Source of the DNA: a virus
Lineage: Duplodnaviria > Heunggongvirae > Uroviricota > Caudoviricetes
Direction: 5' to 3' (one strand)
DNA: 64,000 bases
IMG/VR virus record: IMGVR_UViG_3300029554_000003
Span: 77,064 to 141,063 of that record
The notes under the pieces are model-generated. The model saw nothing but the letters and a program-made list of their open reading frames with translations. It did not search any database and was not told where the DNA came from. Each line of letters starts with the position of its first letter. Within the stretch, counting starts at the first letter, position 1. Shown one piece after another: positions 4,057 through 60,856 of the stretch. A program made the translations under genes and the position numbers.

Positions 4057-5130
4057 TTATTCCCCCGCTGTTTCGGAGAAGACAGACTTAGAATACCAAC
4101 TATCTACATCGGAATCCTTTGTACGACCATCGTGACCAAGAACATCCTTATTCTTATAGTTGTGAGTTGTATCAGTCTTGTCAACAACCTGTAGCGTAGC
4201 CATAACCTTCTTCTTTTTGTTGAATTTTGTATAGGCAGGCATACAGTCAATAGTGAATGTAAATGTTGATGGGTCACCATTATTAGCCATAGAGAACGTA
4301 AAGTTACTCTGGATTTTACCACGAGGAATGATAAATTCAGCAGGAAGGTCTACGCCAGTCTCTTCATCACGGAAAAGGGTAGACGCTTCGATATAATAGT
4401 AACCAGCAAAGTTCTCAGCATCAATCTGCATCTCATAGGCTTCATCGTAATGAACCTCATAGCAGTCAATACGTACAGTGTCGCCAGCCTTTACAGCAGC
4501 ATCCTGCTTACTATCGCCGGGAGTATCGGCAGCAAGCTGGAAAGCAATTGTCTTACCTTCGGCTTCAATTTCACCGTGGTCACCAAGAGTAGCGGCAGTC
4601 AGTGTTTTGCCATCATTAATAACAAAAACCTGCTTGTCGGTAACAGCAGAAAGATAATTAGCTTGAGCACCAGCACTATCGAGAGTAACAGGATAGATAG
4701 GAGCTTCTTTTGTAACGATGATAGTCGCACCATTACGGTCTTCATCAGTTAGCTTAGCGATAATTTTATCATCAGAAGTTTCAGCAACCATATCATATGT
4801 AGCATGGACATAGATAGGAGTCTTATTTTCATCAGTCTTCTTGCCATGTACTAGACCAGCACCAGACAGCATAGCGAAGCTGGTAGGACTCATTAGAGAA
4901 TCCTCAAGAGTCAAGGTAAGAGTCTTCTCACCATCCCAGGCGATTAGACGAGGATTACCTTTGCCACCTTGTGCATAAACAGTGGTAGCAGCACCTTCAA
5001 GGCTAGAAGTCTTGGCGGTGTCAATATAAAGCATAGGCTGACCAGCATCGAAGTGCTGGTCACCGAGGTCTACGGATGTAAGAGGCTTGAAGACTACATC
5101 GCAGATTTCTCGCACGCCAAATCTATTCAT
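4057..5130 (-). CDS. putative major tail protein
   Basis: 357 aa with an AGGAGA RBS. It follows the head-tail joining genes and precedes the chaperone and tape measure protein. Composition is beta-rich. Assignment by position only. Confidence 0.4.
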   Translation of the reverse strand: MNRFGVREICDVVFKPLTSVDLGDQHFDAGQPMLYIDTAKTSSLEGAATTVYAQGGKGNPRLIAWDGEKTLTLTLEDSLMSPTSFAMLSGAGLVHGKKTDENKTPIYVHATYDMVAETSDDKIIAKLTDEDRNGATIIVTKEAPIYPVTLDSAGAQANYLSAVTDKQVFVINDGKTLTAATLGDHGEIEAEGKTIAFQLAADTPGDSKQDAAVKAGDTVRIDCYEVHYDEAYEMQIDAENFAGYYYIEASTLFRDEETGVDLPAEFIIPRGKIQSNFTFSMANNGDPSTFTFTIDCMPAYTKFNKKKKVMATLQVVDKTDTTHNYKNKDVLGHDGRTKDSDVDSWYSKSVFSETAGE

Positions 5131-5237: not shown

Positions 5238-6008
5238 TCAATAAATACCGTTCATCCAATTATCAGGCTCGTCCATCTTGCTAACATCCATCATAGGAGT
5301 AGTAGCTACCTTCTGATATAAGTCATATGCCATCTTAATTGTATACCTCTTAATACTATCAAACAACTGAAATGGAGTATAATTATATATGACATTAATA
5401 TCAATTGCCAAACCAATAGAAAGAGCAGAAGCATAATTGCCAAAGATACTATTAGCTTTCTTCTTATCTTTATCGCTCTTTATCTGATTTCGTATTTCTC
5501 GACCACGTTGAAGTTTGGCCGCAATTTCGGCAGCTGCATCATTAGCAGGATTAAATTCTTCTTCATACTTATCAGTGCCTACTGGCAAAAATAATTCTTT
5601 CAATGTAATTCTGAAATTTTCAAAATTCATAGGATTAAGTTGCCCTACTATCGGTCCATTTTCCTGTACTCTAAAATTGATACACCCAGCGTCATATTCA
5701 ATTATATAATTAGGAAAAATAAGGCCGAAAAGGTTATCTACATTTCTTTTAGTGTTTTCGTCCTGTTGGATGATTACTAATAATATTTGAAAATCGTCCA
5801 TATATCCTAATTGACTTTTGCCCACGTTTTTCATTTCTGCGGCAAGTTCTTTCGCCTTGACAAAAAGTTCAATTGACATAAGAAACGAATCTTCACCAAA
5901 AGCACAAATATCTTTAATAGACGGTTGCGAGATAGCAACATTTGCTCCCGCAACCGTCACTGGCATTCCAGAAAGATATTTACCTAAATCTCCTTGTAAC
6001 TCTGACAT
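5238..6008 (-). CDS. hypothetical virion/neck protein
   Basis: 256 aa ORF in the structural operon, translationally coupled to the upstream gene. Confidence 0.4.
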   Translation of the reverse strand: MSELQGDLGKYLSGMPVTVAGANVAISQPSIKDICAFGEDSFLMSIELFVKAKELAAEMKNVGKSQLGYMDDFQILLVIIQQDENTKRNVDNLFGLIFPNYIIEYDAGCINFRVQENGPIVGQLNPMNFENFRITLKELFLPVGTDKYEEEFNPANDAAAEIAAKLQRGREIRNQIKSDKDKKKANSIFGNYASALSIGLAIDINVIYNYTPFQLFDSIKRYTIKMAYDLYQKVATTPMMDVSKMDEPDNWMNGIY

Positions 6009-15236: not shown

Positions 15237-17018
15237 CTAATGCTTCGTAAAGAACATAAATCCACTTAAATCTCTTGAATTGCGGCGGTTTCGCCTATCC
15301 TCTTGGCGTTTACACCAATAGAGTCCATAGATTAGAGCAGACACTTTATCCTTTAGAATCTTTCTATTAGATTGTTTCAGGATGATATTTGCACCTTCAT
15401 TATCTTGTACCAAATTTGCCATTTGTGATTTCAAAATATCCGTGGCAACATATGGCCGCAAATAATCCTGACGCTGTAATGGTGACATCTTCTTTCCTTG
15501 CGCTTGCTGCAAGAGCTTATTTTTAGCTGTATTTGAGTCAATTAAAAATTTTAATTTACCGTTGCGCAATTGCGTCTGAGTGTAAGAATACAGTTCTGTA
15601 TTCATTGGAGCATTTGCTTTCATCATCCAAATCGCATTTTTGATTGTGTTTTCATTCTCGAACGATTTATAATTCTTACGGTCTTGCTCGTTAGGAATAT
15701 CGTCTAAATTGATAATGCCCATGTTAGGAAGAAGCTCGTCTGTTTCTGGGTCGTTCTGGTCTGTAATTAGGTAATCAAGCAGTCCAACGCCTAAACCATT
15801 CGCATCCAAAACTATGGCTTCGCATTTGAACGCATTAAACAATTGCTTAATTCTAATGGCTTGATATTCAAAGTGAGATTCAGATAAAGTGAAAATGTTC
15901 ACTATCTTTTTATCATTAACGCCTGTTGTTCTTGCAGGAGAAGATTCAATGATTACAATTTCTGTCGGGCAGTTAAGGCGACCTACGTCTACGCCCATAA
16001 CGTAGAATGTGTCTCTATTTTGTCCCTTGTCGTATCCATTCTTGGCGAGATTAATAATCCTGTGTTTGTCAAACTTATTCATATCGAAGAACGCACCGTC
16101 TAAAGTTCCTGACCAGACGGACCCGTATTCACGTTCAAATCCAATCTCGTCCATCGAGTTGCCTGTCTCTTGGGCTTGAATGTAGTTCGCTGGCTGTAAT
16201 CCTTCGACTACTGGTACTCTCCAATCGCCTCCTAGAATGAAAGAATCGTATCCATTACTTGACACCATACGACACAGCGCATCGATTAGCTTGTCGTAAG
16301 CATAAGTACCTTTGAATCCTGCGCTTGTAACGTAAATATCGTTTTGATTCAACGTTTCATCTGGGTCTACTTTTCCATTGACTTTTCTAGAAATAACAAG
16401 CATCGGCGCAATGATTTCTTCGTACTTTTGCTGGTCTGTAATGGTTGCTACCTCTTCTGTAAGTACAGCTTGAGCACGAAAACCACGAGAACCAGAAGTC
16501 ATGCTTACGTTCTTAATTGTACTTCCGTTGCGGAAACTGTATGTTACTTCATCTTTCGATTGACTTGTCTTTGCCAAAGTTCCTCGTGTATCCCAAACAA
16601 TTTCTCTTGCTAGTCCGGGAATTAACTTACATATCTCCTGCATCTTTGATTGAAGAATCATTGCTGACTGACCTTTAGCATCTGCTACTGTAATTAGTGT
16701 AGAGCCTGGATAAAGAATTGCCTTGACCATTAAAGACAAAACAGCCATAAAAGATTTGGAAAATCCTCGACTAAATACTTCATAGACAGTCCTGTACCGC
16801 ATATTGATACGGAGAATCATGCGCTGAGTTGGATAGAATTGAAACTTATTGTTAGGATTAAGCGAAGCCATATAATCTACAAATTTATCTGGATACATAC
16901 GCCAATAGGCAATAATACGTTGATATTTATCTAGATTATCCTCAATCTTTTTTGGGTCAATCTCGGCAACGCTTTTTTTATTATGCGCCGCAATCTTCAA
17001 TAAATTACTCAGCGCCAT
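15237..17018 (-). CDS. terL: terminase large subunit
   Basis: The track ORF is 15237..17093; the likely start is the internal ATG at 17018 (MALSNLL…), which removes the overlap with the upstream gene. Roughly 590 aa with a Walker-A-like RGFSKS segment and a C-terminal nuclease-like acidic region. Lies upstream of the portal. Confidence 0.6.
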   Translation of the reverse strand: MALSNLLKIAAHNKKSVAEIDPKKIEDNLDKYQRIIAYWRMYPDKFVDYMASLNPNNKFQFYPTQRMILRINMRYRTVYEVFSRGFSKSFMAVLSLMVKAILYPGSTLITVADAKGQSAMILQSKMQEICKLIPGLAREIVWDTRGTLAKTSQSKDEVTYSFRNGSTIKNVSMTSGSRGFRAQAVLTEEVATITDQQKYEEIIAPMLVISRKVNGKVDPDETLNQNDIYVTSAGFKGTYAYDKLIDALCRMVSSNGYDSFILGGDWRVPVVEGLQPANYIQAQETGNSMDEIGFEREYGSVWSGTLDGAFFDMNKFDKHRIINLAKNGYDKGQNRDTFYVMGVDVGRLNCPTEIVIIESSPARTTGVNDKKIVNIFTLSESHFEYQAIRIKQLFNAFKCEAIVLDANGLGVGLLDYLITDQNDPETDELLPNMGIINLDDIPNEQDRKNYKSFENENTIKNAIWMMKANAPMNTELYSYTQTQLRNGKLKFLIDSNTAKNKLLQQAQGKKMSPLQRQDYLRPYVATDILKSQMANLVQDNEGANIILKQSNRKILKDKVSALIYGLYWCKRQEDRRNRRNSRDLSGFMFFTKH

Positions 17019-18519
17019 ACTGCTCTGCCAATCTCTTAGCTTCTTCTTCGCGTTCTTCAATTTGGAATTGCTGGAAGTCCGCAGCTTCTTCATCAGTTAC
17101 CGCATTATCTTCATCGGTTTTGATGCCCTCTGCGATAATTTCATCTACGCTCTTGGTTTTATTCTCTTCAAGTTTCTTAATATAAGACTCAATAAGATTA
17201 CCTAGGCCAAGCTCGTTCTTTACGAGATTGTCAGTATAGTTCTTCATATCGTTGATGATAAAATCAATCTTGTCTTGCGGCACATTGATTGGGTCATCTT
17301 TTCTTGGGATAATTCCACCTTTAGATTCTACAAATGCAACCAGCTCACCAATCGAGTCAATGTCTCTCTTCTTCTCTTCCTGCTTTTGGCTATCAGTGAA
17401 TTTACCTGACTTACGCAACATGTCATTGGCACCCTGTAGGTCTTTAAATGTCTTAATATCACCTACATCTAGGGCTTGATTCATCTTTAAATCGGTCTTA
17501 CAGATATTTTTCAATACTTGTTCACGGTCTGTAGATAACTCATAATCCGCCGCATACTTCTGGTATAATTCTTCCATCTTAACCCATTCAGATGGTTTAT
17601 ATAAAAGACCCCATTTAAGAGAAAGATATTTAATATCGTCTTCTGTAAGACTTTCTGTAATTTGCGCTTCATCAATTCGCGCAACATCTGGAATAAAGTC
17701 ATTTTGCATTTCACCAGTAATATCTAGTGGCGCATTACTAATATTCTCTACTGGGTTTACGCCAAGAGAAGAAGCAACGTCAGGCATAAGGTCAAGCACT
17801 TGTGGCTCAGGCTCTTCCACCTCTTTTGGTTGCTCTTTTTTCTTTTCCTTTTCGGCTTTCTTGGCTAAGAATTCCTGCTCAACATCTTTGGCCGCGCTGA
17901 TAACGTCTGCATTTTTCTTGATTTCCTCTGAATCAACTGTATTTTCGGGAACTTCAAGTTCTTTTTTATCAAGCACGCTATCAGGATTGCTCGCAACCTC
18001 TTCCTCACCTTGCCGCATTTTTTCATTAATGCGGTCTAAGACACTTTTGCGGCTCATTGTATTATATTCAGCTTGTGAAATCTCACCAGCTTTAAGGCTC
18101 TCTAGGAGTCTATTTTCAAATTCTTCATCGTAGGATGTTCCTTTAATATTCTGTTGCTCTCTCCTAGCCTGCTGGAATTTTTCATTATTTATTTTCTCAG
18201 AGTCAGCATATTTCAAATTATTATACTGTTCCATATTCATAGTACGAAGATAGGTGCCGATAACTGACATTGGGCCAAAAGTAGCAGGATTCTTTATATA
18301 GCTTTTATTTGCCAGCTCAACCCATTTTTTCTCAACATATGGCACATCCATCTTCTTTAAAATCCATTTGAATGTATCTGGTCGGCGATTATCAATATAC
18401 ATTGTTAAGCAAGTCTTGCAAAGGTCACATCTTTCATCTGTATTAGGTATTTTATAAAAATCAGTTTCTTTCTTAGTCTTGCCGCATTTTGCGCATGTTT
18501 TCATAGATACGTTTGCCAT
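17005..18519 (-). CDS. zinc-ribbon protein, candidate terminase small subunit / packaging protein
   Basis: Likely start at 18519 (MANVSMKTCAKCGKTKK…, AGGAGA RBS). N-terminal CxxC…CxxC ribbon, then a long acidic, coiled-coil-like region. Directly upstream of terL. Confidence 0.4.
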   Translation of the reverse strand: MANVSMKTCAKCGKTKKETDFYKIPNTDERCDLCKTCLTMYIDNRRPDTFKWILKKMDVPYVEKKWVELANKSYIKNPATFGPMSVIGTYLRTMNMEQYNNLKYADSEKINNEKFQQARREQQNIKGTSYDEEFENRLLESLKAGEISQAEYNTMSRKSVLDRINEKMRQGEEEVASNPDSVLDKKELEVPENTVDSEEIKKNADVISAAKDVEQEFLAKKAEKEKKKEQPKEVEEPEPQVLDLMPDVASSLGVNPVENISNAPLDITGEMQNDFIPDVARIDEAQITESLTEDDIKYLSLKWGLLYKPSEWVKMEELYQKYAADYELSTDREQVLKNICKTDLKMNQALDVGDIKTFKDLQGANDMLRKSGKFTDSQKQEEKKRDIDSIGELVAFVESKGGIIPRKDDPINVPQDKIDFIINDMKNYTDNLVKNELGLGNLIESYIKKLEENKTKSVDEIIAEGIKTDEDNAVTDEEAADFQQFQIEEREEEAKRLAEQYGAE

Positions 18520-44336: not shown

Positions 44337-44816
44337 CTATACAATCATATAATCGTCTACAAGACCCTTGGCCTTAGCACGAGCAGGCATGTAACGTCCA
44401 GCCCACATGCGCTTAATAACATCCTCGGGTACACGCTCAACACCACTACGCTTAGCATTCTGCGGCAAAGCAATGTCAAGACCACGGTTGAAGTACACAA
44501 GGATAACCTTATCGGCGTTCTTGCCGCAATTCTCGACAGTCTTACGAAGCGACTTCCAAGAGATGTGAGTAGCATCTGCAATTACGTTAATATCATTACA
44601 GAGGTTGTCATTAATCTGATTATAGAAGTCCTTGATAACGTCCTTCTCGTATTTAAAATAATCCATAGAAGGAAGGAAATCAGGGTCGTTTGCCATATAC
44701 TCAAAGCGGATATAATCGCGCGAAACAATCTCGGCATCAAGCTCGGCGTAATGCTCGTGCGCCCAAAACGACTTGCCGCAGCCAGGAATTCCTGCTAAAA
44801 TATAAAGGTTAGCCAT
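44337..44816 (-). CDS. P-loop polynucleotide-kinase-like protein (AAA_33/Pnk-like)
   Basis: N-terminal LYILAGIPGCGKS Walker A. About 160 aa. Size and motif resemble the kinase domain of T4 Pnk and related zeta-toxin-like kinases. Confidence 0.5.
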   Translation of the reverse strand: MANLYILAGIPGCGKSFWAHEHYAELDAEIVSRDYIRFEYMANDPDFLPSMDYFKYEKDVIKDFYNQINDNLCNDINVIADATHISWKSLRKTVENCGKNADKVILVYFNRGLDIALPQNAKRSGVERVPEDVIKRMWAGRYMPARAKAKGLVDDYMIV

Positions 44817-45283
44817 ATTTATCTCCTTCTTTTGGCTTAATGTCTAATCGTAAAGTCGATGTGCTTTTCTTGCTTTATCATATTCCTGCTTTGGATTATA
44901 TTCATCTTGACATTCATGCGTTAAATGCCAAGATTTACATACCTTACATTTATACGGGCGAAGAACTTTAGAACTATTAATAAATATAGTCTTTGCCGCG
45001 CACAATGCATCATATCGACAGGAATACTTTCTCTTTGATTTACAAGTATCTATGTTTTATACCTTACATGAACAAAGTGACTACAAAGAAAACTTTTATC
45101 ATACAATTTTGTAGTATCTTCAATCATAGGACGTGTATCGTTATAATATCCACAATCCACATTGCTGCAATGTTCTTTGATTCTGTTTTGACACACAGTA
45201 CAAATAAAAGTAGACATTGTATATTCTTTCTCTTGGTCTTTCTTTAAATCTATTATATCATTTTAAATTGCCGTCTGTCAATA

Positions 45284-45321
45284 AAAAAAATAGGGTAACT
45301 TCTTTTATAGAAGTTACCCTA
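45284..45321 (-). terminator. intrinsic terminator ending the structured-RNA transcript
   Basis: Reverse-strand GGGTAACTTCT-ataaa-AGAAGTTACCC followed by TTTTTTTT. Confidence 0.6.
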
Positions 45322-45810
45322 CATAATGTGTGGAGGAAGTGACTGGTGACGCTCCAGATTCCCTGTTAAGGAACACATCGCTTTCGAGGCGAGTCCGAAC
45401 GCTGGTTCGATTCCACTTCCTTATGGCGGCTAACCGAAGTGCTGCCCTCCATTCCCTCTCGGGAACGCACCGCTTTCTAGGCGGGCCTAGTCGCTGGACT
45501 AGTTGATTAGCCAAAGCAGGATGCGTATTCACGGCGCATCCAGAGGGTCTGTTTTTACGGTGTTTCAGCTCACCTATTACTCCGTGAAAGCACTCGCTTA
45601 TCTCCTAGCAAGAAGGCTCGCTATTCTCTCGAATAGCTATGCGGTGTTGCCTATTCTACCGCAAAAGCTGTTTTCGGCACAGCTTCAAAGCCACCGCCAA
45701 TAGGGGCGTGAATGTATGGCGGGGCAACTGGAATACGATTCCAATACTTGAATCACAAGTACGTTCTGATTAGCAGTCAGACCTAACTCCCCGTTAGTTG
45801 TCTGCCCCAT
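45322..45810 (-). ncRNA. GC-rich hairpin-dense non-coding transcript (~490 nt), function unknown
   Basis: Over 50% GC in a 35% GC background. The ORFs on the track here (45314..45532-, 45503..45703+) are short and lack RBSs. A promoter-like sequence lies at ~45812-45838 on the reverse strand, and the terminator is at 45284-45321. More than eight perfect local hairpins of 5-7 bp. Confidence 0.4.
45717..45808 (-). tRNA. tRNA-Ser(GCU)-like, class II, with encoded CCA (non-canonical T-loop)
   Basis: Hand fold on the reverse strand. Acceptor GGGGCAG/TTGCCCC. D-arm CTAAC-GGGGA-GTTAG. Anticodon arm TCTGA-CUGCUAA-TCAGA. Long variable hairpin GTACTTG…CAAGTAT. T-arm TTGGA-ATCGTAT-TCCAG. Ends G-CCA. 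The T-loop departs from the T54/A58 consensus. Confidence 0.45.
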
Positions 45811-45985
45811 ATAAACAGCATCAGACCTCTCTCTGTCAAGTTTCGCTATAAAGAAGCGCTGCGAGTTATCATTATTCTGTATCTAATGCTGTTTTAAACA
45901 GGTAGGAGCGGCGTAAGAGATTCTAACTCTCACCAAAGGCTTGGAAGGCCTGTATGCTAACATTACACCAACGCCGCATATAAGG

Positions 45986-46059
45986 TGACAGTGATTAGAT
46001 TTGAACTAATGACCTCACGGGTATGAGCCGTGCGCTCTAACCATCTAAGCTACACTGCC
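45986..46059 (-). tRNA. tRNA-Met/Ile2 (CAU)
   Basis: GGCAGTG…GCTTAGATGGTTAGAGC…CACGG-CUCAUAC-CCGTG…CATTAGTTCAAATCTAATG-like T-arm…CACTGTC-A. Confidence 0.7.
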
Positions 46060-46073
46060 AAATAAACTAAAGG

Positions 46074-46146
46074 TGGGCCGTCAGGGGGTCGAACCCTGGA
46101 CCTTGGGATTAAGAGTCCCCTGCTCTACCAACTGAGCTAACGACCC
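46074..46146 (-). tRNA. tRNA-Lys (CUU)
   Basis: GGGTCGT TA GCTCAGTTGGTAGAGC A GGGGA-CUCUUAA-TCCCA AGGTC CAGGG-TTCGACC-CCCTG ACGGCCC A. One G·A at 27-43. Confidence 0.65.
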
Positions 46147-46154
46147 ATATAAGG

Positions 46155-46227
46155 TGTCCACGGGTAGAATTGAACTACCGACACGCAGATTTTCAGTCTA
46201 CTGCTCTACCTACTGAGCTACATGGAC
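46155..46227 (-). tRNA. tRNA-Phe (GAA)
   Basis: GTCCATG TA GCTCAGTAGGTAGAGC A GTAGA-CUGAAAA-TCTGC GTGTC GGTAG-TTCAATT-CTACC CGTGGAC A. Confidence 0.7.
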
Positions 46228-46231
46228 ATAT

Positions 46232-46306
46232 TGGCTTCTCTATTATGACTCGAACATAAACTAACGGAACCAAAATCCGTTGTGCTGCCAATTACACCAT
46301 AGAGAA
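46232..46306 (-). tRNA. tRNA-Gln (UUG) with encoded CCA
   Basis: U1:A72 acceptor TTCTCTA/TAGAGAA. Anticodon arm ACGGA-UUUUGGU-TCCGT. T-arm TTATG-TTCGAGT-CATAA. Then G-CCA. Confidence 0.65.
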
Positions 46307-46313
46307 ATTTTAG

Positions 46314-46385
46314 CGTGCCAGAGAAGATTCGAACTTCTATCTCGAGAGCGTCACCTCGCAATTTTGCCAGTTAAACTACTAACAC
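46314..46385 (-). tRNA. tRNA-like gene with non-canonical anticodon loop (6 or 8 nt)
   Basis: Perfect acceptor GTGTTAG/CTGGCAC (with G·U pairs). U8A9. D-arm GTTT-AACTGGCA-AAAT. Perfect T-arm AGAAG-TTCGAAT-CTTCT. Total length 72 nt. The anticodon helix CGAG(G)/(T)CTCG encloses GTGACGCT, so no 7-nt loop is possible. Anticodon undetermined. Confidence 0.45.
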
Positions 46386-46597: not shown

Positions 46598-46640
46598 GTT
46601 AACTATATTATATAAAATTATTTGGCGTTTGTCAAATTAA
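46598..46640 (-). promoter_or_regulatory. tRNA cluster 1 promoter (TTGACA-N17-TATAAT, near-identical to the one at 52325-52365)
   Basis: Reverse strand: TTGACAAACGCCAAATAATTTTATATAATATAG. The leader begins ACAAATCGAGC…GTGGGTTCGACTCCAAC… Overlaps the 3' end of the GIY-YIG gene. Confidence 0.6.
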
Positions 46641-46644
46641 TTTT

Positions 46645-47280
46645 TTAAATAAATTTCCAGTGTTTTTGATATGCAATTGTATTTGCTTTAGCTGCACTTC
46701 TAATATGCACAGTAATTCCACATATCTTTTTGGCTTGAGTATATTTATTCTCTTTTAAATATTTAGCCGCTTCTGTTATGGAATTAAAAATGATATTATC
46801 CGGTAGCATTAAAATTCTTTTACTATATTTTTGACGAACTAAATCTTGACTACTAAGAATAGAAACATTGCATTCTTCACAAGCTATTTTAACAGTTGAA
46901 ACATCACAACCGAAATATTGTGCTGTTTTCTTTTGATTTTGTAATTTTAAATACATATTAGCAATTTCTTGGTAATCGTAATATTTTTTACTATCGCCAC
47001 CTTTTGTAGCATTATATCCAGTATGACCATATGTGTTTAATTTAGCAATCCAATATTCTTCTCTTTTTGAAGAGTCTTCGGCAGAACATTCTTCTAATTG
47101 CTCAACATGAAAATGCTCAACGCCATATTTATTCATAGCAGAATACAGAGGACGTTTTTCACATCTTTCTTTTTTGCTATCTACAATATGCTCTCTAAAT
47201 CTTCTTTCGAGTGAAAAGTTGGTTTTGCCAACATATTGTTTTCCGTTAACATCATTTGTAATTACATAGATAAAAGCCAT
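46645..47280 (-). CDS. GIY-YIG homing endonuclease
   Basis: N-terminal IYVITNDVNGKQYVGKT…R…EH (GIY…YIG…R…E/H class). C-terminal DNA-binding region. Paralogue of 52591..53232. Sits at a tRNA cluster, as SegB does in T4. Confidence 0.65.
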   Translation of the reverse strand: MAFIYVITNDVNGKQYVGKTNFSLERRFREHIVDSKKERCEKRPLYSAMNKYGVEHFHVEQLEECSAEDSSKREEYWIAKLNTYGHTGYNATKGGDSKKYYDYQEIANMYLKLQNQKKTAQYFGCDVSTVKIACEECNVSILSSQDLVRQKYSKRILMLPDNIIFNSITEAAKYLKENKYTQAKKICGITVHIRSAAKANTIAYQKHWKFI

Positions 47281-47433
47281 ACAGTCCTCAATCCTACCTC
47301 AATAATAATATTGAGTAAGCAGGCGTTGAGGTTTATTCGCTTTTCCTTATGGTAGCTACTCCAATAAGTAGCTTACTCAATTATACAATATAAAAATCGT
47401 GTTATAGCGATTATATGATTTAGACCAAGATAG

Positions 47434-47524
47434 TGCAAGATTTTGGACTCGAACCAAAAATTTTCGCTAATCTGGCGATAATACAGTTTATAAGTCTGCT
47501 GTTTTACCATTAAACTAATCTTGC
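47434..47524 (-). tRNA. class-II-like tRNA embedded in a 17-bp extended stem; anticodon loop CUUAUAA (UAU?)
   Basis: Acceptor GCAAGAT/ATCTTGC. U8A9. D-arm GTTT-AATGGTA-AAAC. Anticodon arm GCAGA-CUUAUAA-ACTGT (A31·A39). Long variable hairpin TCGC-CAGATTA-GCGA. T-arm TTTGG-TTCGAGT-CCAAA. Flanked by the perfect 17-bp inverted repeat GACCAAGATAGTGCAAG/CTTGCACTATCTTGGTC. Confidence 0.5.
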
Positions 47525-47563
47525 ACTATCTTGGTCTTTATAAACTATAATCCAAAGTTTACA

Positions 47564-47637
47564 TGGACGATATTAAATTTGAACTAATGACCTCTTACGT
47601 ATCAATCAGCGCTCTAGCCAAACTGAGCTAACCGTCC
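47564..47637 (-). tRNA. tRNA-like paralogue of the CAU tRNA with disrupted anticodon stem (possible pseudogene)
   Basis: Acceptor GGACGGT/ATCGTCC. D-arm GCTC-AGTTTGGCTA-GAGC. T-arm ATTAG-TTCAAAT-TTAAT, nearly identical to 45986..46059. The anticodon region CTGATTGATACGTAAGA cannot form a 5-bp stem. Confidence 0.35.
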
Positions 47638-47681
47638 ATGCAATCTTTAGAATATAAATCTAATAAGTAACTGCTTTTAAA

Positions 47682-48587
47682 CTATTGGTGAGACTTTAGC
47701 CACTTCTGAACATACCAAAGCTGGCCGCACCCACCACCAATATCATCTTGACCAGCTGGGTCAAATGTCCTTACATTATAACCCTTTTTTAAGAACTTAT
47801 TCTGAAACTTCTTAATAACACTTAAGTTCCTAAACGCCGCGTCTTTCATGGTTTCATCAGATGCGCAAACTACACTAAAAGTAAAATTAAAGATTACAGG
47901 AGAAAACAGGTCTGTAAGTTCTTTAAAATTCTTATCTTCATTATTCGTTCCATCAATGCAGTAATTTAAGAACGGATGCCTACCTGTCTCTTTCCACCAG
48001 ATAGTTCCAGCATCCCTAATCTTTTGAAGATTCATCTTATTCTTAAATGGAATTAATACATTTCTCTCTGTATCATTGGACTTATGAATAGAAAATTGCA
48101 AACCAATTTTATCTATCTTCTTAGATAGAGCAATCATCTTTGCAAAAGTTTCATCATTATCGCATCCAATAGTCGAAAGTAGTAACTGAGCATTACTAAA
48201 CTGTTGATGAAGATTGATAATTGCTTTTTCAACTTCTGTCCAATTTAACATAGGCTCGCCCATGCTCATAAACATAAACTGTAACTTTTTACACTTTTCG
48301 TTAATGTCATTAATTAAACCTTTATCAGTTAAAACGGTTACAATCTGGTCTACAATTTCATCAGCAGTAAGATTCCTAACAAACTTAGACCCCGTGCCGC
48401 AAAAGCGACATCCAACAGGACAACCGCTCATAACACTACAACAAATTACAGTTCTATCATAGTAACTATTATATTTATATAGAACTGCTTCAGCGACCAT
48501 ATCTTTTTTTGTAAAGACATACTTCCATACATCGCCAGAATTTCCTTCAAAAGTCTTAAAATTCATAACAGCACTTTCATTTAGCAA
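47682..48587 (-). CDS. RlmN/Cfr-family radical-SAM RNA methyltransferase
   Basis: CCSVMSGCPVGCRFCGTG matches the CxxxCxxC cluster of the family. MSMGEPMLN matches MGMGEPLLN. LLSTIG matches TLSTSG. FSIHKSND matches ISLHAPND. C-terminal GQDDIGGGCGQLW matches GDDIDAACGQLAG. At 301 aa it is shorter than bacterial RlmN at the N-terminus. Confidence 0.65.
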   Translation of the reverse strand: MLNESAVMNFKTFEGNSGDVWKYVFTKKDMVAEAVLYKYNSYYDRTVICCSVMSGCPVGCRFCGTGSKFVRNLTADEIVDQIVTVLTDKGLINDINEKCKKLQFMFMSMGEPMLNWTEVEKAIINLHQQFSNAQLLLSTIGCDNDETFAKMIALSKKIDKIGLQFSIHKSNDTERNVLIPFKNKMNLQKIRDAGTIWWKETGRHPFLNYCIDGTNNEDKNFKELTDLFSPVIFNFTFSVVCASDETMKDAAFRNLSVIKKFQNKFLKKGYNVRTFDPAGQDDIGGGCGQLWYVQKWLKSHQ

Positions 48588-49438: not shown

Positions 49439-49975
49439 TTACTCTCCAAGCTCAATCTTCTTCTGCTGAACATCGAGCCAAATATCATGAATATTAACAG
49501 GAGTAAGATTATTCGTGTCAACACCTACATGATACGTCCAATCAACAAGACCCTTGGGAGCCGCATCATGGACATGACCGTACAGAATAACATTGGCGCT
49601 GTCTCCACACATTTCCTCGGGACGCTCGTGAATCATAATGAAACTGACATCGTTGTAATCAAGGCAAGATACCTTGTTTTCGATAATCCAGCCGAGCTTT
49701 TCCATTTCAGCAATGCGCTTCTTGGTATCGTGATTGCCGGGAATCACATGAATCTTTCCATTAAGACGAGAACCGTATTTAGCTACAGTCTCAAGCGGTC
49801 CCATGAAACAATCACCAAGATGGTAGACAGTATCATCAGGAGATACAACGGAATTCCACTTCTCAACGATGTGTTCGTTCATATCCTCGACATTATTAAA
49901 AGCACGCGACTGCTCACAATAGGTAATAATATTCTTGTGAGAAAAGTGAGTGTCGCTTACTACAAAGATGCTCAT
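49439..49975 (-). CDS. calcineurin-like metallophosphoesterase
   Basis: Likely start is MSIFVVSDTHFSH at 49975 (GGAGA RBS). Has the D-x-H, GD, GNHD and GH…H signature motifs. Confidence 0.65.
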   Translation of the reverse strand: MSIFVVSDTHFSHKNIITYCEQSRAFNNVEDMNEHIVEKWNSVVSPDDTVYHLGDCFMGPLETVAKYGSRLNGKIHVIPGNHDTKKRIAEMEKLGWIIENKVSCLDYNDVSFIMIHERPEEMCGDSANVILYGHVHDAAPKGLVDWTYHVGVDTNNLTPVNIHDIWLDVQQKKIELGE

Positions 49976-50033
49976 TGAATCTCCTTTCGATTTCTTAAAT
50001 ATATTATAACATAATATATAGCCAATAGTCAAC
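49976..50033 (-). promoter_or_regulatory. conserved promoter + leader copy
   Basis: Reverse strand TTGACT-N18-TATAAT, immediately after the terminator at 50034-50066. Confidence 0.55.
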
Positions 50034-50066
50034 AAAAAAAGGGACTCAAGAGAGTCCCTACAAAAA
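50034..50066 (-). terminator. intrinsic terminator closing tRNA cluster 2
   Basis: GGGACTC-tctt-GAGTCCC followed by TTTTTTT on the reverse strand. Confidence 0.6.
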
Positions 50067-50609: not shown

Positions 50610-50735
50610 TTTAATAAACATTGGTGCCGCATCTAGGTAACGCTCCTAGCCAGTCTAAGACACTTGATTTACAGTCAAGACCTCGTCTTTAAAGGAATAC
50701 TGCGGCAGTTATATTTTAAAGTTTAGTATGCCTTG

Positions 50736-51869: not shown

Positions 51870-52300
51870 ATTGGTCGCGAAGTGCCGCTGACGCTGCGAC
51901 TTAACAGAGCTTATGAGACTCCGTGAGATACTGACCTCCCACCCGCAATTAAAGTAGTAGTTTTCACATCTGCCGAGGTTTGAAAACTACCAAAATATAC
52001 CAGATTCCTCTTCCCCTAGGCGTTTCTTTTCAAGTATACGCTGGCCCGCATTGTCTACGGCTACAGAGACGGCATATATAAAATCTTGCAAGCAAGATAA
52101 TATAATCACGTGGACGGTTTCAAACTGGGAAAGCCGCCAACCCTTTAATCTATAATCCCTGCAAAAGATTATAGAAGTCGGGAGACATTTACCTTGCAGC
52201 GATAACCTCTCCCCAAGCTATAACACAATCGTTAGGTGCTATTCTCACCAATTGAACTACAGCCCCTTGCGGGAAAGACAGGAGTCGAACCTGCATCTTC
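51870..52300 (-). ncRNA. second GC-rich structured non-coding region (~430 nt) behind the duplicated tRNA-cluster promoter
   Basis: No ORF of 60 aa or more. The leader after the promoter begins ACAAAATCGTGAAGGTGAAGATGCAGG-TTCGACT-CCTGT (isolated T-arm hairpin), then GGGGCTGTAGTTCAATTGGTGAGAATAGCACC (tRNA 5'-half-like), then ~350 nt of hairpin-rich sequence with no matching 3' half. Confidence 0.35.
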
Positions 52301-52365: not shown

Positions 52366-52590
52366 CAGGCTGGCTCTTTCTGTGCTGCCCAGAAATTTTA
52401 TGATTCAGAGTCATATGTTCTACTGTTGAACTAAGAGCCAAAAAGTGGGCAAATTTATATAGCGACTGCCCAAACCGCTAAATTGACTTGGGGTAGTACA
52501 GGCGAGTTCAAAGCTCGGTCTACTACCACTTGGAGAGTGTCTAAGATTAGCACTCTATTTTAGTAATATATATATTACTAAAATACAACA

Positions 52591-53232
52591 CTAACTTTCT
52601 ACATATTCCCAATGGAAACCATACGATGTTTTGTTAATATTTTCACAAACCTGCTTAATATGCCTTGAAATTCCTTGTATAGATTTATTTGTAGTATAAT
52701 TGTTATCAAATAACCATTGAGACGCATCGTGCAATGATTGAAAAATTTTATTTTCTTCTATCAGTCGCACTTTTTTAGAATATCTTTCTTTACAAAGAGT
52801 ATTTGGTCGTAGCATTTCTATGCCACATTGTTTACATGCAAGTCGGACAGTATCAGCGCAACAATGAAAATATTTTGCTACTTTTATTGTATCATGTGTT
52901 TGTGAATACATGTCAGCTATTTTTTTATAATCATAAAATGAACAACCGTCTCCACCAATTGTAGCATTGTATCCATTGCGATAAGTATCTAATTTTGTTA
53001 TCCAATACTTTTCTTTTTCGTCAACTTCATCTGACGAACATTCTTCTAATTGAAAGGCATGAAAGTGCTCTACGCCATATTTTTTCATAGCTTTATAAAG
53101 AGGTCTACCTTGTATTTGTTCTTTTTTGCTGTCGCTTAAATGTTGGGCGAATCTTCTCTTAATTGTAAAATTAGTTTTTCCAACATATTTTTTGTTGTTG
53201 ACATCATTTACAATAACATAAATATAAGACAT
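52591..53232 (-). CDS. GIY-YIG homing endonuclease (second copy)
   Basis: Likely start is MSYIYVIVNDVNNKKYVGKT at 53232. Paralogue of 46645..47280, also adjacent to a tRNA-cluster promoter. Confidence 0.65.
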   Translation of the reverse strand: MSYIYVIVNDVNNKKYVGKTNFTIKRRFAQHLSDSKKEQIQGRPLYKAMKKYGVEHFHAFQLEECSSDEVDEKEKYWITKLDTYRNGYNATIGGDGCSFYDYKKIADMYSQTHDTIKVAKYFHCCADTVRLACKQCGIEMLRPNTLCKERYSKKVRLIEENKIFQSLHDASQWLFDNNYTTNKSIQGISRHIKQVCENINKTSYGFHWEYVES

Positions 53233-53502
53233 TTTATCACCCACTTAAATAATGAATGGAGCCAACTTAGGGTGCTGCCCCCTATGCTTCGCTTTACAAG
53301 AGCGATGTATTACTGTTATACTAAGCTGGCTTTACCAAAAAGAAAAATGAGCCTGCAATACTCTAGAAATCTTGCAGGCTCTAACACCACTATTACAATA
53401 TAAAAGTTGCGCAACAAAAATTATAACTTTTTGTCCAGAACTTTTATTTTGTAACTAAAAATATTATATCATATTGATATAAAGTCTGTCAAGAACTTTT
53501 TT

Positions 53503-57204: not shown

Positions 57205-58152
57205 TTAATTTTCAAACCAGTTTCGCAACTCGATAACCGAGGGGCAAGTTCCACGACCTTTCTCGCGGCACTCTTCTACAAACTCAGGGATTGCGTCCAT
57301 GAGACGAGGTTCAAATGCAAGCTTGGTCTTGATGTTCTTGATAGCATCAATGTCGCGTCCAGTCCAAACCTGCTGTAAAACTCCACGAGCCTGCTTCCAG
57401 TTCTTGTACCAAGGAGTCTTATATTTCACCATGAAACCGTTCGCATCCTCGAAGACAAAGCCCTCGATGTATGCACGTGCGGCCCACTTGTCAATAAAGG
57501 CTTCAAACTCCTGCCAGTTAGCAATGACTTTGCTAAGAACCTTGCAATAGAATCCGAAATGTCCCGCTACGTCAATAAGTGTATAGTACCCCGCATGGCT
57601 ATAGTTGAAATCATTGTACACCAAGTCCAAAAGCACGAGGTGAGGATGCGAATACTCAACAATATGCGGGTCATGGATAGGGTCAATGCACTCGAAGACA
57701 GCAGTGCAGTCATTCTTGTGCAGATATTCTGCGAATTCCTCCTGCTGTGCAGTGGTCAACGTCTTGTCAAGAACGTCACGGATATATCCCGCGAAGTCTC
57801 CTTCATTCGTGCTCTTGGATGCGATGAACAGTTTACCGTCCTCGGTCGGGTCGGCAGAAATCATCGCAAGGAATCCGTTAGACTTGACATATGCACACAC
57901 AGGGAACACAAGATTCTCGCGCAGGCTAGCCATTTCAGTCTCAGGACGTTCTCCAATATTGAAGAACTTGTTGTACGAACGTGCAACAACCTTATTATCA
58001 TCTTTTACAAAAAGTCCGCGTGCTTTAACATTAATATCATCCCATGCTTGGTTGAAAAAGCACTTGTTTGAGAAATTAAAAGAAGAGATTCCATTGGCAA
58101 GATGTTTCTCGCGCACAAGCGAGCTATTACGCAGTATATCGACTTCGTTCAT
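57205..58152 (-). CDS. ATP-dependent RNA ligase-like nucleotidyltransferase
   Basis: Candidate motif I is K in VKSNGFLAM. Motif IV is EGFVFED. Motif V is VKYKTPWYKNWK. At 315 aa the size fits the Rnl2/DraRnl class. Confidence 0.5.
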   Translation of the reverse strand: MNEVDILRNSSLVREKHLANGISSFNFSNKCFFNQAWDDINVKARGLFVKDDNKVVARSYNKFFNIGERPETEMASLRENLVFPVCAYVKSNGFLAMISADPTEDGKLFIASKSTNEGDFAGYIRDVLDKTLTTAQQEEFAEYLHKNDCTAVFECIDPIHDPHIVEYSHPHLVLLDLVYNDFNYSHAGYYTLIDVAGHFGFYCKVLSKVIANWQEFEAFIDKWAARAYIEGFVFEDANGFMVKYKTPWYKNWKQARGVLQQVWTGRDIDAIKNIKTKLAFEPRLMDAIPEFVEECREKGRGTCPSVIELRNWFEN

Positions 58153-60283: not shown

Positions 60284-60856
60284 TTAACCTTTCATCCTAT
60301 AACGTCGAGAGTATTCCATCATACAACACGCGGCCGCTTGTGCAACATTTAATGAACGAATACTGCCATCTTGACGAATATAAATCATTTCATCGCACTT
60401 ATCAATGATTTCTTGCGGCAAACCATTGCACTCGCTACCATATACAAATGCGGATTTCATTGGAATATCTGCATCGAAAATATTCTGAGGATTATATTCA
60501 GGAATATTATCTACAGCAAAGATACTATATCCAAGAGGATGAAGAATTTCAATGACTTCATCAAAATTATCCGCATGATATACACGCTCTACATGAGTGC
60601 TACCCACGGCTCCTCTTCTGTCAAAGCGCTTGCGGCCAACGACATAAGTTTCCTTTGCAAGAAAACAATTAGACGCACGAATAATTGAACCTACATTAAA
60701 ACCGTGGTCAAGATTGATGCAGATGTTCACTAGCGGCATACGGTTAGGTTGAAGTGCCGCACGAATTTCCTCAGCAGACCACTTCTTATAAATGTCAATT
60801 ACATTGTTGCTTGGCTTTGCTTCGGTATTGATACCATGCGAATACTGAGTAATCAT
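60284..60856 (-). CDS. SpoU/TrmH-family RNA 2'-O-methyltransferase
   Basis: SPOUT motifs: …FVYGSECNGLPQEII… (motif 2-like) and …IYIRQDGSIRSLNVAQAAACCMMEY (motif 3, xSLNVsxAaai). 190 aa. Confidence 0.55.
   Translation of the reverse strand: MITQYSHGINTEAKPSNNVIDIYKKWSAEEIRAALQPNRMPLVNICINLDHGFNVGSIIRASNCFLAKETYVVGRKRFDRRGAVGSTHVERVYHADNFDEVIEILHPLGYSIFAVDNIPEYNPQNIFDADIPMKSAFVYGSECNGLPQEIIDKCDEMIYIRQDGSIRSLNVAQAAACCMMEYSRRYRMKG

Follow-up and report, generated by a model that had tools for sequence, protein, structure and literature searches.

A probable array of irregular serine tRNAs and two further RNA modules in the distal part of a bacteriophage tRNA operon

Introduction

Mukai et al. 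(2017, Nucleic Acids Res 45:2776; PMC5389517) described serine transfer RNAs (tRNAs) of the (8/4) type from rumen Clostridia and from bacteriophages. The features given there are a 12-bp acceptor branch split 8/4 or 9/3, a D stem that is long as in tRNASec and closed by a tetraloop, a long variable arm, G73 or U73, and Y20. The authors also describe polycistrons in which irregular 7/5 and 8/4 tRNAs are mixed, mention the 8/4 design in bacteria as well, and report that allo-tRNAs become serylated and that the E. coli ribosome uses them; for the allo-tRNAs as a group, the anticodon stem is said to be longer than the canonical one. Here we describe a locus which closely resembles this arrangement. 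It occupies ~490 nt (45322-45810) of a 64,000-nt stretch of viral DNA (Caudoviricetes; positions 77,064 to 141,063 of the IMG/VR record IMGVR_UViG_3300029554_000003), which was analysed as a whole and is referred to as the window.

In an initial annotation the region had been regarded as one GC-rich, hairpin-dense, non-coding transcription unit with a cryptic tRNA-Ser-like gene at its 5' end. The analysis presented below leads to a different view. With a probability of about 0.8, the region is the distal half of a tRNA operon and consists of five independent RNA cassettes followed by a terminator. The cassettes are an irregular 7/5 tRNA-Ser(GCU) (module A), two 8/4 serine tRNAs (modules D and E), and two RNA modules designated B and C.

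Results

The region was compared with ~60 related contigs, which were gathered in four steps. A search with the 159-aa open reading frame (ORF) at 44337-44816 as query yielded 26 IMG/VR loci on contigs of ~4-148 kb, most of them 70-148 kb. A module B pattern added one more viral relative (four high-GC chance matches were dropped from this first viral scan), a B-type pattern added 24 metagenome contigs, many of ~140 kb and derived from human-gut assemblies where the record names give the source, and a module C pattern added 13 further viral contigs.

Alignment breakpoints and module mapping divided the region into five cassettes, A to E, all on the minus strand (-), and the breakpoints were located exactly at the cassette edges. 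The cassette orders found in the relatives were A-B-C-D-E, A-B-X-E, A-B-D-E, A-B-C followed by a U run, A-B followed by a terminator, A-B followed by canonical tRNA-Ser(UGA) and tRNA-Phe genes, A-B-X-C-D followed by a GIY-YIG ORF, and A-B-C-Y-E, where X and Y denote modules that occur in relatives and are absent from the window. Because the cassettes occur separately and in varied orders, a single folded RNA of 490 nt is incompatible with these data, and the single ~490-nt unit of the initial annotation has to be replaced by five parts that are shuffled independently among relatives. A second phage subfamily (L041 and L117-L129; e.g. L117, 1452-1660) has only tRNA-Ser(GCU), B and C, followed by a membrane-protein gene.

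Modules D (45424..45512, (-)) and E (45331..45420, (-)) are colinear paralogues. Module D has an 8-bp acceptor stem (GGCUAAUC/GGUUAGCC), a D arm of 6 bp with a tetraloop (CUAGUC-CAGC-GACUAG), the anticodon loop CUAGAAA with the anticodon AGA at 45478-45476, the variable arm UUCCC-GAGA-GGGAA, a 4-bp T arm (GGAG-GGCAGCA-CUUC) and the 3' end G-CCA. The corresponding elements of module E are the acceptor stem GGAAGUGG/UCACUUCC (8 bp), the D arm UCGAAC-CAGC-GUUCGG, the anticodon loop CUCGAAA (anticodon CGA, 45386-45384), a long variable arm, the T arm CUGG-AGCGUCA-CCAG (4 bp) and the 3' end U-CCA; in the relative L003 the anticodon loop is CUUGAAA, corresponding to the anticodon UGA. Both modules have two linker bases after the acceptor strand and a variable arm of 5-7 bp. 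With a covariance model built from D and E sequences they scored 102 and 101 bits, respectively.

The fold was well supported by covariation. Among 15 distinct D/E sequences 95.7% of the alignment cells were paired, and 17 of the 28 pairs showed compensated changes. The eighth acceptor pair (columns 8-79) was always paired and varied between CG, GU and GC, and the four pairs of the T stem were 100% paired and all covaried, also when distant members were included; a 7/5 reading of E would require a U-U pair. The D stem of 6 bp was 97.8% paired with four compensated pairs and carried the loop CAGC or CAGU. The discriminator base was U in E and G in both D and the E2 variant of E, with CCA following in each case. 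Many G-U pairs of D and E would be A-C mismatches on the other strand, indicating that the minus strand is the RNA strand, as do the U run of the terminator and the orientation of the neighbouring genes. A plus-strand reading of E, which contains the T-loop look-alike GGTTCGATTCC, was rejected: the look-alike was not kept in relatives and the G-U pairs need the minus strand.

When viral contigs were scanned for the conserved pattern of the anticodon arm, arrays of two to four 8/4 serine tRNAs, scoring 52-73 bits, were detected in three unrelated high-GC contigs (L113, 2194-2688; L115, 630-917; L116, 9226-9495). The anticodons in these arrays were GCU, CGA, UGA and GGA, and all four were present in L113. 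In a joint alignment of D/E with the distant arrays, 23 of the 28 pairs were compensated. By structure, D and E are thus assigned to the known 8/4 tRNA-Ser type, with A as their irregular 7/5 companion. The suggestion in the initial annotation that further degenerate tRNA-like genes might be present was correct for 180 of the ~390 nt that it had left unexplained. One of the three contigs with distant arrays is 199 kb long, and other irregular tRNA-like pieces are located between the array tRNAs.

Module A runs from 45808 to 45717 (45717..45808, (-)). Its acceptor stem is GGGGCAG/UUGCCCC, and a compact D arm (5 bp, loop GGGGA) is followed by the anticodon arm UCUGA-CUGCUAA-UCAGA with the anticodon GCU at 45774-45772, a 6-bp variable arm, a 5-bp T arm (UUGGA-AUCGUAU-UCCAG) and the encoded 3' end G-CCA. 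It thus has the 7/5 cloverleaf, long variable arm, serine anticodon, U33, purine 37 and G73 of a class-II tRNA-Ser. Among 17 distinct versions 97.3% of the cells were paired and 16 of 28 pairs showed two-sided changes, which were distributed over all five helices; at most three such pairs were seen in any slid control. The covariance model derived from D and E recognized A with 34.4 bits (E 1.6e-6). Some irregular versions (L007, L009, L014) have the T loop UUCGAAU, as compared with AUCGUAU in the window. In these the bases at positions 54 and 58 are swapped together (U:A to A:U), along with one T-stem pair, as predicted for a preserved 54:58 tertiary pair. The covariation indicates that the cloverleaf is correct and under selection.

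In 8 of the first 26 loci the slot of module A is occupied by a tRNA-Ser(GCU) which is called by ARAGORN and has canonical D and T loops, and more such loci were found later; the irregular and the canonical form look interchangeable. The class-II cloverleaf with GCU anticodon, encoded CCA and deviant T loop that the initial annotation had proposed is therefore upheld by strong covariation. Its description as cryptic does not hold in the sense of decay: A covaries as a cloverleaf, and a canonical tRNA-Ser(GCU) stands in the same slot elsewhere.

Odd T loops are also found in other tRNAs of the window. The tRNAs at 53257-53330 (-) (anticodon UGU) and 52367-52440 (-) (anticodon CUG), which are detected by Rfam but not by ARAGORN, both have the T loop GGCAGCA; a sequence at 50622-50706 (-) with the T loop AGCGUUA and the anticodon GUA was detected only by the D/E covariance model (21 bits). 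As the same odd T loops recur in this way, the deviant elbow is a trait of the tRNA set of the phage and not the decay of a single gene. A 16-bit match to the 8/4 model was also obtained at 51872-51947 (-).

With standard tools the region was almost silent. ARAGORN found 11 tRNAs in the window, none of them inside the region, and no tmRNA (transfer-messenger RNA); in the relatives only canonical tRNA-Ser genes were picked up. Searching the whole window with Rfam 15 at the gathering score detected only tRNAs located elsewhere in the window. When the threshold was relaxed to E <= 10, the region gave a 21-bit match to a small RNA family, which is actually the terminator, and, in module E but on the plus strand, a tRNA-Sec match of 16.8 bits; a divergent relative gave nothing. 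The Rfam comparison which the initial annotation had proposed as a check thus yielded no family that accounts for the region. A blastn search against 50,697 phage records gave no match.

Module B (45638..45710, (-)) is a conserved 73-nt RNA with three hairpins: H1 (CGCC-CCUAUU-GGCG), which is followed by the linker GUGGCUUU, H2 (GAAGCUGU-GCCGAAA-ACAGCUUU) and H3 (GCGGU-AGAAUAGGCAAC-ACCGC). The loop of H1 (CCUAUU) can pair with AAUAGG in that of H3, which would allow a kissing interaction. This suggests a compact RNA: two of the hairpins of B are linked through their loops, and the third projects. It has no acceptor stem, so it cannot be charged. In every related locus B directly follows the tRNA-Ser(GCU) slot, regardless of which form of A occupies it; it occurs as a single copy in the window, where a search for extra copies was negative. 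In 12 sequences 96.8% of the cells were paired and 5 of 21 pairs showed two-sided changes (none in slid controls). In an anchored count over 23 distinct versions, five of the eight H2 positions had at least two Watson-Crick pair types, H1 covaried at positions 1 and 4 of its four pairs, and the kissing helix had one compensated pair: among versions with CCUAUA as the H1 loop, UAUAGG restores the pairing in L024 and L119, and AAUAGG leaves one mismatch in L022 and L023. Between subfamilies the H2 stem is wholly rewritten (GAAGCUGU/ACAGCUUU, AUGGUAGU/ACAACCAU, AAGAUUUU/AAAAUCUU and AGGGUGGU/ACAACCCU), and the H2 loop, (G/C)CCGAAA, remains constant.

A pairing between the 3' end of A (CCCGCCA) and UGGCGG in B, present in the minimum free energy (MFE) structure, was rejected on two grounds: the partner is missing at loci with a canonical tRNA-Ser, and H1 covaries. 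Scanning reference bacterial genomes (genome_contigs) with the module B pattern gave 28 matches, all of them chance matches in coding DNA, and module B was not seen in these genomes at that pattern stringency. For B and C alike, Rfam gave no match at E <= 10 in the window or in a divergent relative.

Module C (45513..45637, (-)) is a highly conserved multi-hairpin RNA of 125 nt. It comprises H4 (GCUAUUC-GAGA-GAAUAGC), H5 (CUUGCU-AGGAGAUA-AGCGAG, extended by GAGC/GCUU), H6 (GGUG-AGCUGAAA-CACC) and H7 (GGAUGCG-CCGUGAAUA-CGCAUCC). In the hairpins and the extension 99.8% of the cells were paired, with a mean column identity of 94%. C is present in ~60% of the relatives and is ~94% identical even across subfamilies whose B stems are wholly different; its likeness to C of the second subfamily suggests either a recent exchange of C or a very strong constraint. 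In that subfamily H7 and a U run end the operon. In the window the H7 U run is eroded to UGCUUUGG, and D and E follow. A pseudoknot between UUCACGG and the invariant H7 loop CCGUGAA is possible; neither side varies. An alternative, upstream pairing of the middle strand of H5 (AGCGAG-CCUU-CUUGCU) was discarded: it is not kept in L120 and L127, and the downstream pairing is compensated.

At 45563-45596 (-) module C also contains a Shine-Dalgarno-like AGGAG in the H5 loop; 8 nt downstream of it, a GUG begins a frame of seven codons (GUG CUU UCA CGG AGU AAU AGG UGA; MLSRSNR). Across 27 versions no position of the first five codons varies, and where codons do vary the amino acid is altered. Since there is no synonymous variation, the frame is probably not coding, and constraint at the RNA level is likelier.

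The region differs sharply from its surroundings in composition. Its G+C content is 51.5%, as compared with 31.0% and 30.6% in the adjacent flanks, 37% in the surrounding 10 kb and 39% in the whole window, in agreement with the ~20 points above background that had been noted before. The minus strand of 45284-45815 has an MFE of -193.9 kcal/mol, as against -158.1 +/- 6.3 for dinucleotide shuffles (z = -5.65), and none of 100 shuffles folded as well; the plus strand gave z = -5.5, as expected from the hairpins. All four hairpins named in the initial annotation exist exactly as spelled there. GCTATTC-GAGA-GAATAGC and GGATGCG-N9-CGCATCC lie within module C, whereas TTCCC-GAGA-GGGAA and CTAGTC-CAGC-GACTAG are the variable arm and the D arm of tRNA D. 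ORFs of 58-72 aa occur in the region. Coding is not credible, because relatives either have or lack a cassette in its entirety and the substitutions are compensatory as in RNA; in this respect the earlier view of a structured, non-coding region on the reverse strand without a credible ORF was sound.

A strong intrinsic terminator, also recognized previously, closes the tRNA operon. It consists of a 14-bp stem, a 5-nt loop and a U run (45290..45322, (-)) and is kept in relatives. The proposed promoter of the region (~45812-45838) fared less well. It contains TTGACA, but no -10 hexamer reaching 4/6 matches was present at a spacing of 16-18 nt, the site did not appear in the list of a promoter scan, and its -35 hexamer differs among relatives (TTGACG, TTGATG). 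This TTGACA lies in a conserved ~95-nt spacer (45809..45904, (-)) which in relatives precedes whichever tRNA is next (Ser or Val). Directly upstream of the region six tightly packed tRNA genes (45905..46385, (-)) were found by ARAGORN and by Rfam RF00005, in the order of one with an 8-nt anticodon loop followed by Gln, Phe, Lys, Met and Gly. Upstream of the tRNA array a consensus sigma-70-type promoter, TTGACA-17-TATAAT, with 12 of 12 hexamer matches is located at 46607..46635 (-); it is likely the start of the transcript that contains the region. All nearby tRNAs and ORFs are on the minus strand. A region that adjoins six tRNAs behind a consensus promoter, shares their terminator and has a doubtful promoter of its own does not appear as a separate transcription unit. 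On the simplest reading it is the distal part of a minus-strand phage tRNA operon, presumably co-transcribed with the upstream tRNAs.

Several features near the operon may be mentioned here. ARAGORN tRNAs with 8-nt anticodon loops (four-base anticodons gacg and gata) at 46313-46385 (-) and 47563-47638 (-), and a 92-nt ARAGORN tRNA-Ile(tat) at 47433-47524 (-), have counterparts in related phages. Right after the terminator there is a second perfect promoter, TTGACA-18-TATAAT with a TG extension (45252-45281, (-)), which precedes two small Cys-rich ORFs (55 and 53 aa; 44844-45217, (-)) and then the kinase gene described below.

The anticodon loops of A, D and E all have U33 and A37. In the ORFs of the window serine is encoded by UCU (34.5%), AGU (19.4%), AGC (17.2%), UCA (15.1%), UCC (7.5%) and UCG (6.3%). 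Since UCU makes up 34.5% and AGU plus AGC 36.6% of the serine codons, the GCU and AGA anticodons would serve the commonest ones. ARAGORN found no other serine tRNA in the window. Codon usage and anticodon loops are consistent with a role in decoding without proving it.

The 159-aa ORF used as query (44337-44816, (-)), ~500 nt downstream of the RNA locus, encodes a P-loop kinase of the AAA_33 family. In tblastn searches it matched phage genes annotated as polynucleotide kinase or PseT (29-34% identity). Its best NCBIfam match was the kinase domain of seryl-tRNA(Sec) kinase (PSTK), with 51 bits, far under the family cut-off, and the only solved structures matched at E <= 0.01 were archaeal PSTK (3A4L, 3ADB; E 5e-8); the ORF is without the tRNA-binding C-terminal domain of PSTK. 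Other genes scattered among the tRNA genes encode a metallophosphoesterase (49439-50035, (-)), a T4 Rnl1-type RNA ligase (57205-58152, (-)), a SpoU-type 2'-O-methylase (60284-60856, (-)) and an RlmN/Cfr-like radical S-adenosylmethionine methylase (47682-48587, (-)); with the kinase included, these genes make up a set for tRNA repair and modification. On the simplest reading the kinase, phosphoesterase and ligase would be the classic tRNA-repair set. That the kinase appears nearer to PSTK than to T4 Pnk and adjoins tRNASec-like serine tRNAs is a lead, not a result. In other viral contigs with 8/4 tRNAs a PSTK-like kinase was not seen within the few kb of flank examined.

The terminase (15237-17093) shares 35-40% identity with its counterparts in siphophages of 120-140 kb (Geobacillus, Enterococcus and SPbeta-like phages), and the host is therefore probably a Firmicute. 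By terminase the nearest named phage is Phass-1 (38% identity), a member of a clade using code 15, which is too distant to inform the analysis.

Discussion

On the reading proposed here, for which we estimate a probability of about 0.8 as stated above, a precursor RNA would be cut by RNase P and 3'-end nucleases, and A, D and E, which already encode CCA, would all be charged by the host seryl-tRNA synthetase. This synthetase recognises the long variable arm and the acceptor end, not the anticodon. During infection A would decode AGY, D would decode UCU and perhaps UCC, and E would decode UCG. B and C are predicted to be released from the same precursor. As a best guess, they are no tRNAs; after excision from the tRNA precursor they would persist as stable small RNAs or would bind proteins. 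A ribozyme, decoy or scaffold role, as suggested in the initial annotation, would be conceivable for these ~200 nt. The odd shapes of A, D and E might conceivably let them escape host enzymes that attack tRNAs, and genes of the tRNA-repair type lie nearby.

Several observations weigh against this reading. Neither ARAGORN nor RF00005, at the gathering score or at E <= 10, recognized A, D or E; their T loops (AUCGUAU, GGCAGCA and AGCGUCA, respectively) do not contain the canonical T-Psi-C motif. The anticodon stem of D and E has four Watson-Crick pairs and a conserved C-U mismatch at 27:43, which is unpaired in 15 of 15 sequences and in 16 of 17 in the joint alignment with the distant arrays. 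The A34 anticodon of D (AGA) is unusual for bacteria, and E would read UCG, which the phage uses less than any other serine codon. Module C is so invariant that covariation is thin (three compensated pairs). C, D and E are each missing from some relatives and are thus dispensable. In L014 (5497-5590) and L085 a D/E fusion is joined inside the variable arm, and its acceptor strands cannot pair. The locus is a recombination hot spot which generates relics, and some of the cassettes in some of the phages are dead. Finally, the processing, serylation and use in translation of A, D and E are deduced from the sequences.

The alternative that survives best does not change the anatomy of the locus but adds a purpose to it, and thus overlaps with the reading of an operon with five cassettes. 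It proposes that the irregular serine tRNAs are replacements which resist host immunity directed against tRNAs, and that B and C are acceptor-less tRNA mimics or decoys. We regard it as possible, though rather unlikely. Published studies report that anticodon nucleases and other defences aimed at tRNAs can be evaded by phage tRNAs (van den Berg et al. 2023, PMC10264068; Azam et al. 2024, PMC11555353), and toxins preferring serine tRNAs exist in the AbiEii/MenT family (PMC11541572, PMC7450476). This phage has a PNK/PSTK-like kinase (PNK, polynucleotide kinase), a metallophosphoesterase and a T4 Rnl1-type ligase, a repair set for cleaved tRNA. The B and C hairpin loops of the form N-C-(C/U)-G-A-A-A resemble a Ser(NGA) anticodon loop with C33: the H2 loop of B (GCCGAAA/CCCGAAA) and H6 of C (A-GCUGAAA/A-GCCGAAA) share CGAAA or UGAAA with the anticodon loop of E (CUCGAAA/CUUGAAA), and the B loops are nearly invariant while the stems covary. 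On the other hand, the likeness of the loops comprises 5 nt and can equally be read as a T-loop-like NNCRNNA motif, the window is not enriched in sequences complementary to the B loop (16, versus 11.7 expected), and the proposal rests on no specific defence enzyme, host or target. The 8/4 form also occurs in bacteria, according to Mukai et al. (PMC5389517), so it may be the host's own tRNA style.

A bolder variant, which we find doubtful, concerns B alone or B with C. They would then represent a class of RNA new to tRNA operons: an L-shaped tRNA mimic that lacks an acceptor, carries a loop resembling the Ser(NGA) anticodon loop on its third arm and serves as decoy or cofactor of a tRNA-directed enzyme. 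The 6-bp loop-loop helix would then join the hairpins as the D and T loops are joined in tRNA, and the enzyme might belong to host immunity or be the PSTK-like kinase of the phage encoded ~500 nt downstream.

It was also considered whether the region is a heap of relics, that is, mostly tRNA pseudogenes in decay and debris left by recombination at a hot spot where cassettes are exchanged, functionless save perhaps for tRNA-Ser(GCU). Besides the absence of C, D or E from some relatives and the chimeric D/E genes with non-pairing acceptor strands, this explanation draws on a scrambled composite in L098 and on the mosaic module X (L003, L004, L013, L016, L021, L025 and L026), in which a 5' half resembling B seems to be joined to pieces of D. 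Homing-endonuclease ORFs are present in or next to the locus: in L026 (~5240-5890) one follows module D where E would be, in L010 (~4590-4990) one splits a canonical tRNA-Ser(GCU) gene upstream of the irregular one, and in the window GIY-YIG ORFs lie among the tRNA genes at 46645-47280 (-) and 52591-53244 (-). We nevertheless consider the explanation improbable for the locus as a whole. Intact copies of A, D and E keep 95-97% of the cells paired despite many two-sided substitutions, including those at every pair that defines the 8/4 form, the anticodon loops are canonical with variation only at position 34 (CGA/UGA), and the loops of B are kept while its H2 stem is rewritten between subfamilies; such intact pairing and retention of loops indicate purifying selection on structure.

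A single large structured RNA extending over ~490 nt (a ribozyme, a GOLLD- or ROOL-like RNA, a tmRNA or a T-box-like sensor) has a negligible chance of being correct: large ornate RNAs do adjoin tRNAs in phages, the whole stretch folds far better than its shuffles and the MFE structure offers some long-range pairs, but the parts are separate and reordered in relatives, which already contradicts such an RNA, no Rfam family on the correct strand was matched at E <= 10 in the window or in a divergent relative (for B and C this includes the T-box leader, RF00230), ARAGORN found no tmRNA, and UGGC in the linker of B, the T-box-like partner of GCCA, varies to UGGU, UGGG and UUGU without matching changes.

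If the locus is indeed an operon end with five RNA cassettes, three serine tRNA genes of a phage lineage widespread in the human gut are invisible to standard finders, and tRNAs would be under-counted and decoding capacity misjudged. The locus also offers a natural and well-sampled case of 8/4 and irregular tRNAs whose fold is defined by covariation, which should be useful for tRNA models and for engineering; allo-tRNAs already serve genetic-code expansion. B and C, for which there is no Rfam family, are candidate new small RNAs, located amid tRNA repair and modification genes where phage and host contest tRNAs.

Among known systems, the counter-defence tRNAs (PMC10264068, PMC11555353) share with the present set that they are phage tRNAs unlike the host sequence, here in a genome with enzymes of the tRNA-repair type. 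They differ in that substitutions in the anticodon loops of canonical tRNAs and known nucleases are involved there, whereas here the whole architecture is non-canonical.

For B and C, parallels can be drawn by type, with no claim of similarity in sequence or structure. The tRNA cluster of phage T4 reportedly contains two stable RNAs, species 1 and 2 (rnaC and rnaD), and the 3'ETS-leuZ spacer of E. coli is said to sponge small RNAs. Like these, B and C are structured and conserved non-tRNA segments among tRNAs, with predicted release by the same processing; in contrast to them, B has a loop-loop helix and an obligate link to tRNA-Ser(GCU).

D and E resemble selC (RF01852) in the extended acceptor stem, the 6-bp D stem with a 4-nt loop, the long variable arm and the expected charging by seryl-tRNA synthetase, but the anticodons are AGA and CGA instead of UCA and the branch is 8/4 instead of 8/5. 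Considering also that the RF01852 match reached only 16.8 bits, on the plus strand, as against a threshold of 47 bits, we rejected an identity as selenocysteine tRNAs. No SelA, SelB or selenocysteine insertion sequence (SECIS) turned up among the scanned ORFs, although no search was aimed at them.

The closest counterpart is the (8/4) tRNA-Ser of Mukai et al. (PMC5389517). The present set differs from it in being all-serine, in having an A34 anticodon, and in being interleaved with two non-tRNA modules which are not described in that paper. The anticodon stem of D and E is not lengthened, but the statement on longer stems applies to the allo-tRNAs group-wide and may not cover the phage (8/4) tRNA-Ser. 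The likeness extends to most of the molecule: D and E have the 8+4 branch, a long D stem whose tetraloop ends in a pyrimidine (CAGC/CAGU, corresponding to Y20), a long variable arm, G73 or U73 and serine anticodons, and they are located, like the published examples, in phage tRNA clusters together with irregular 7/5 tRNAs.

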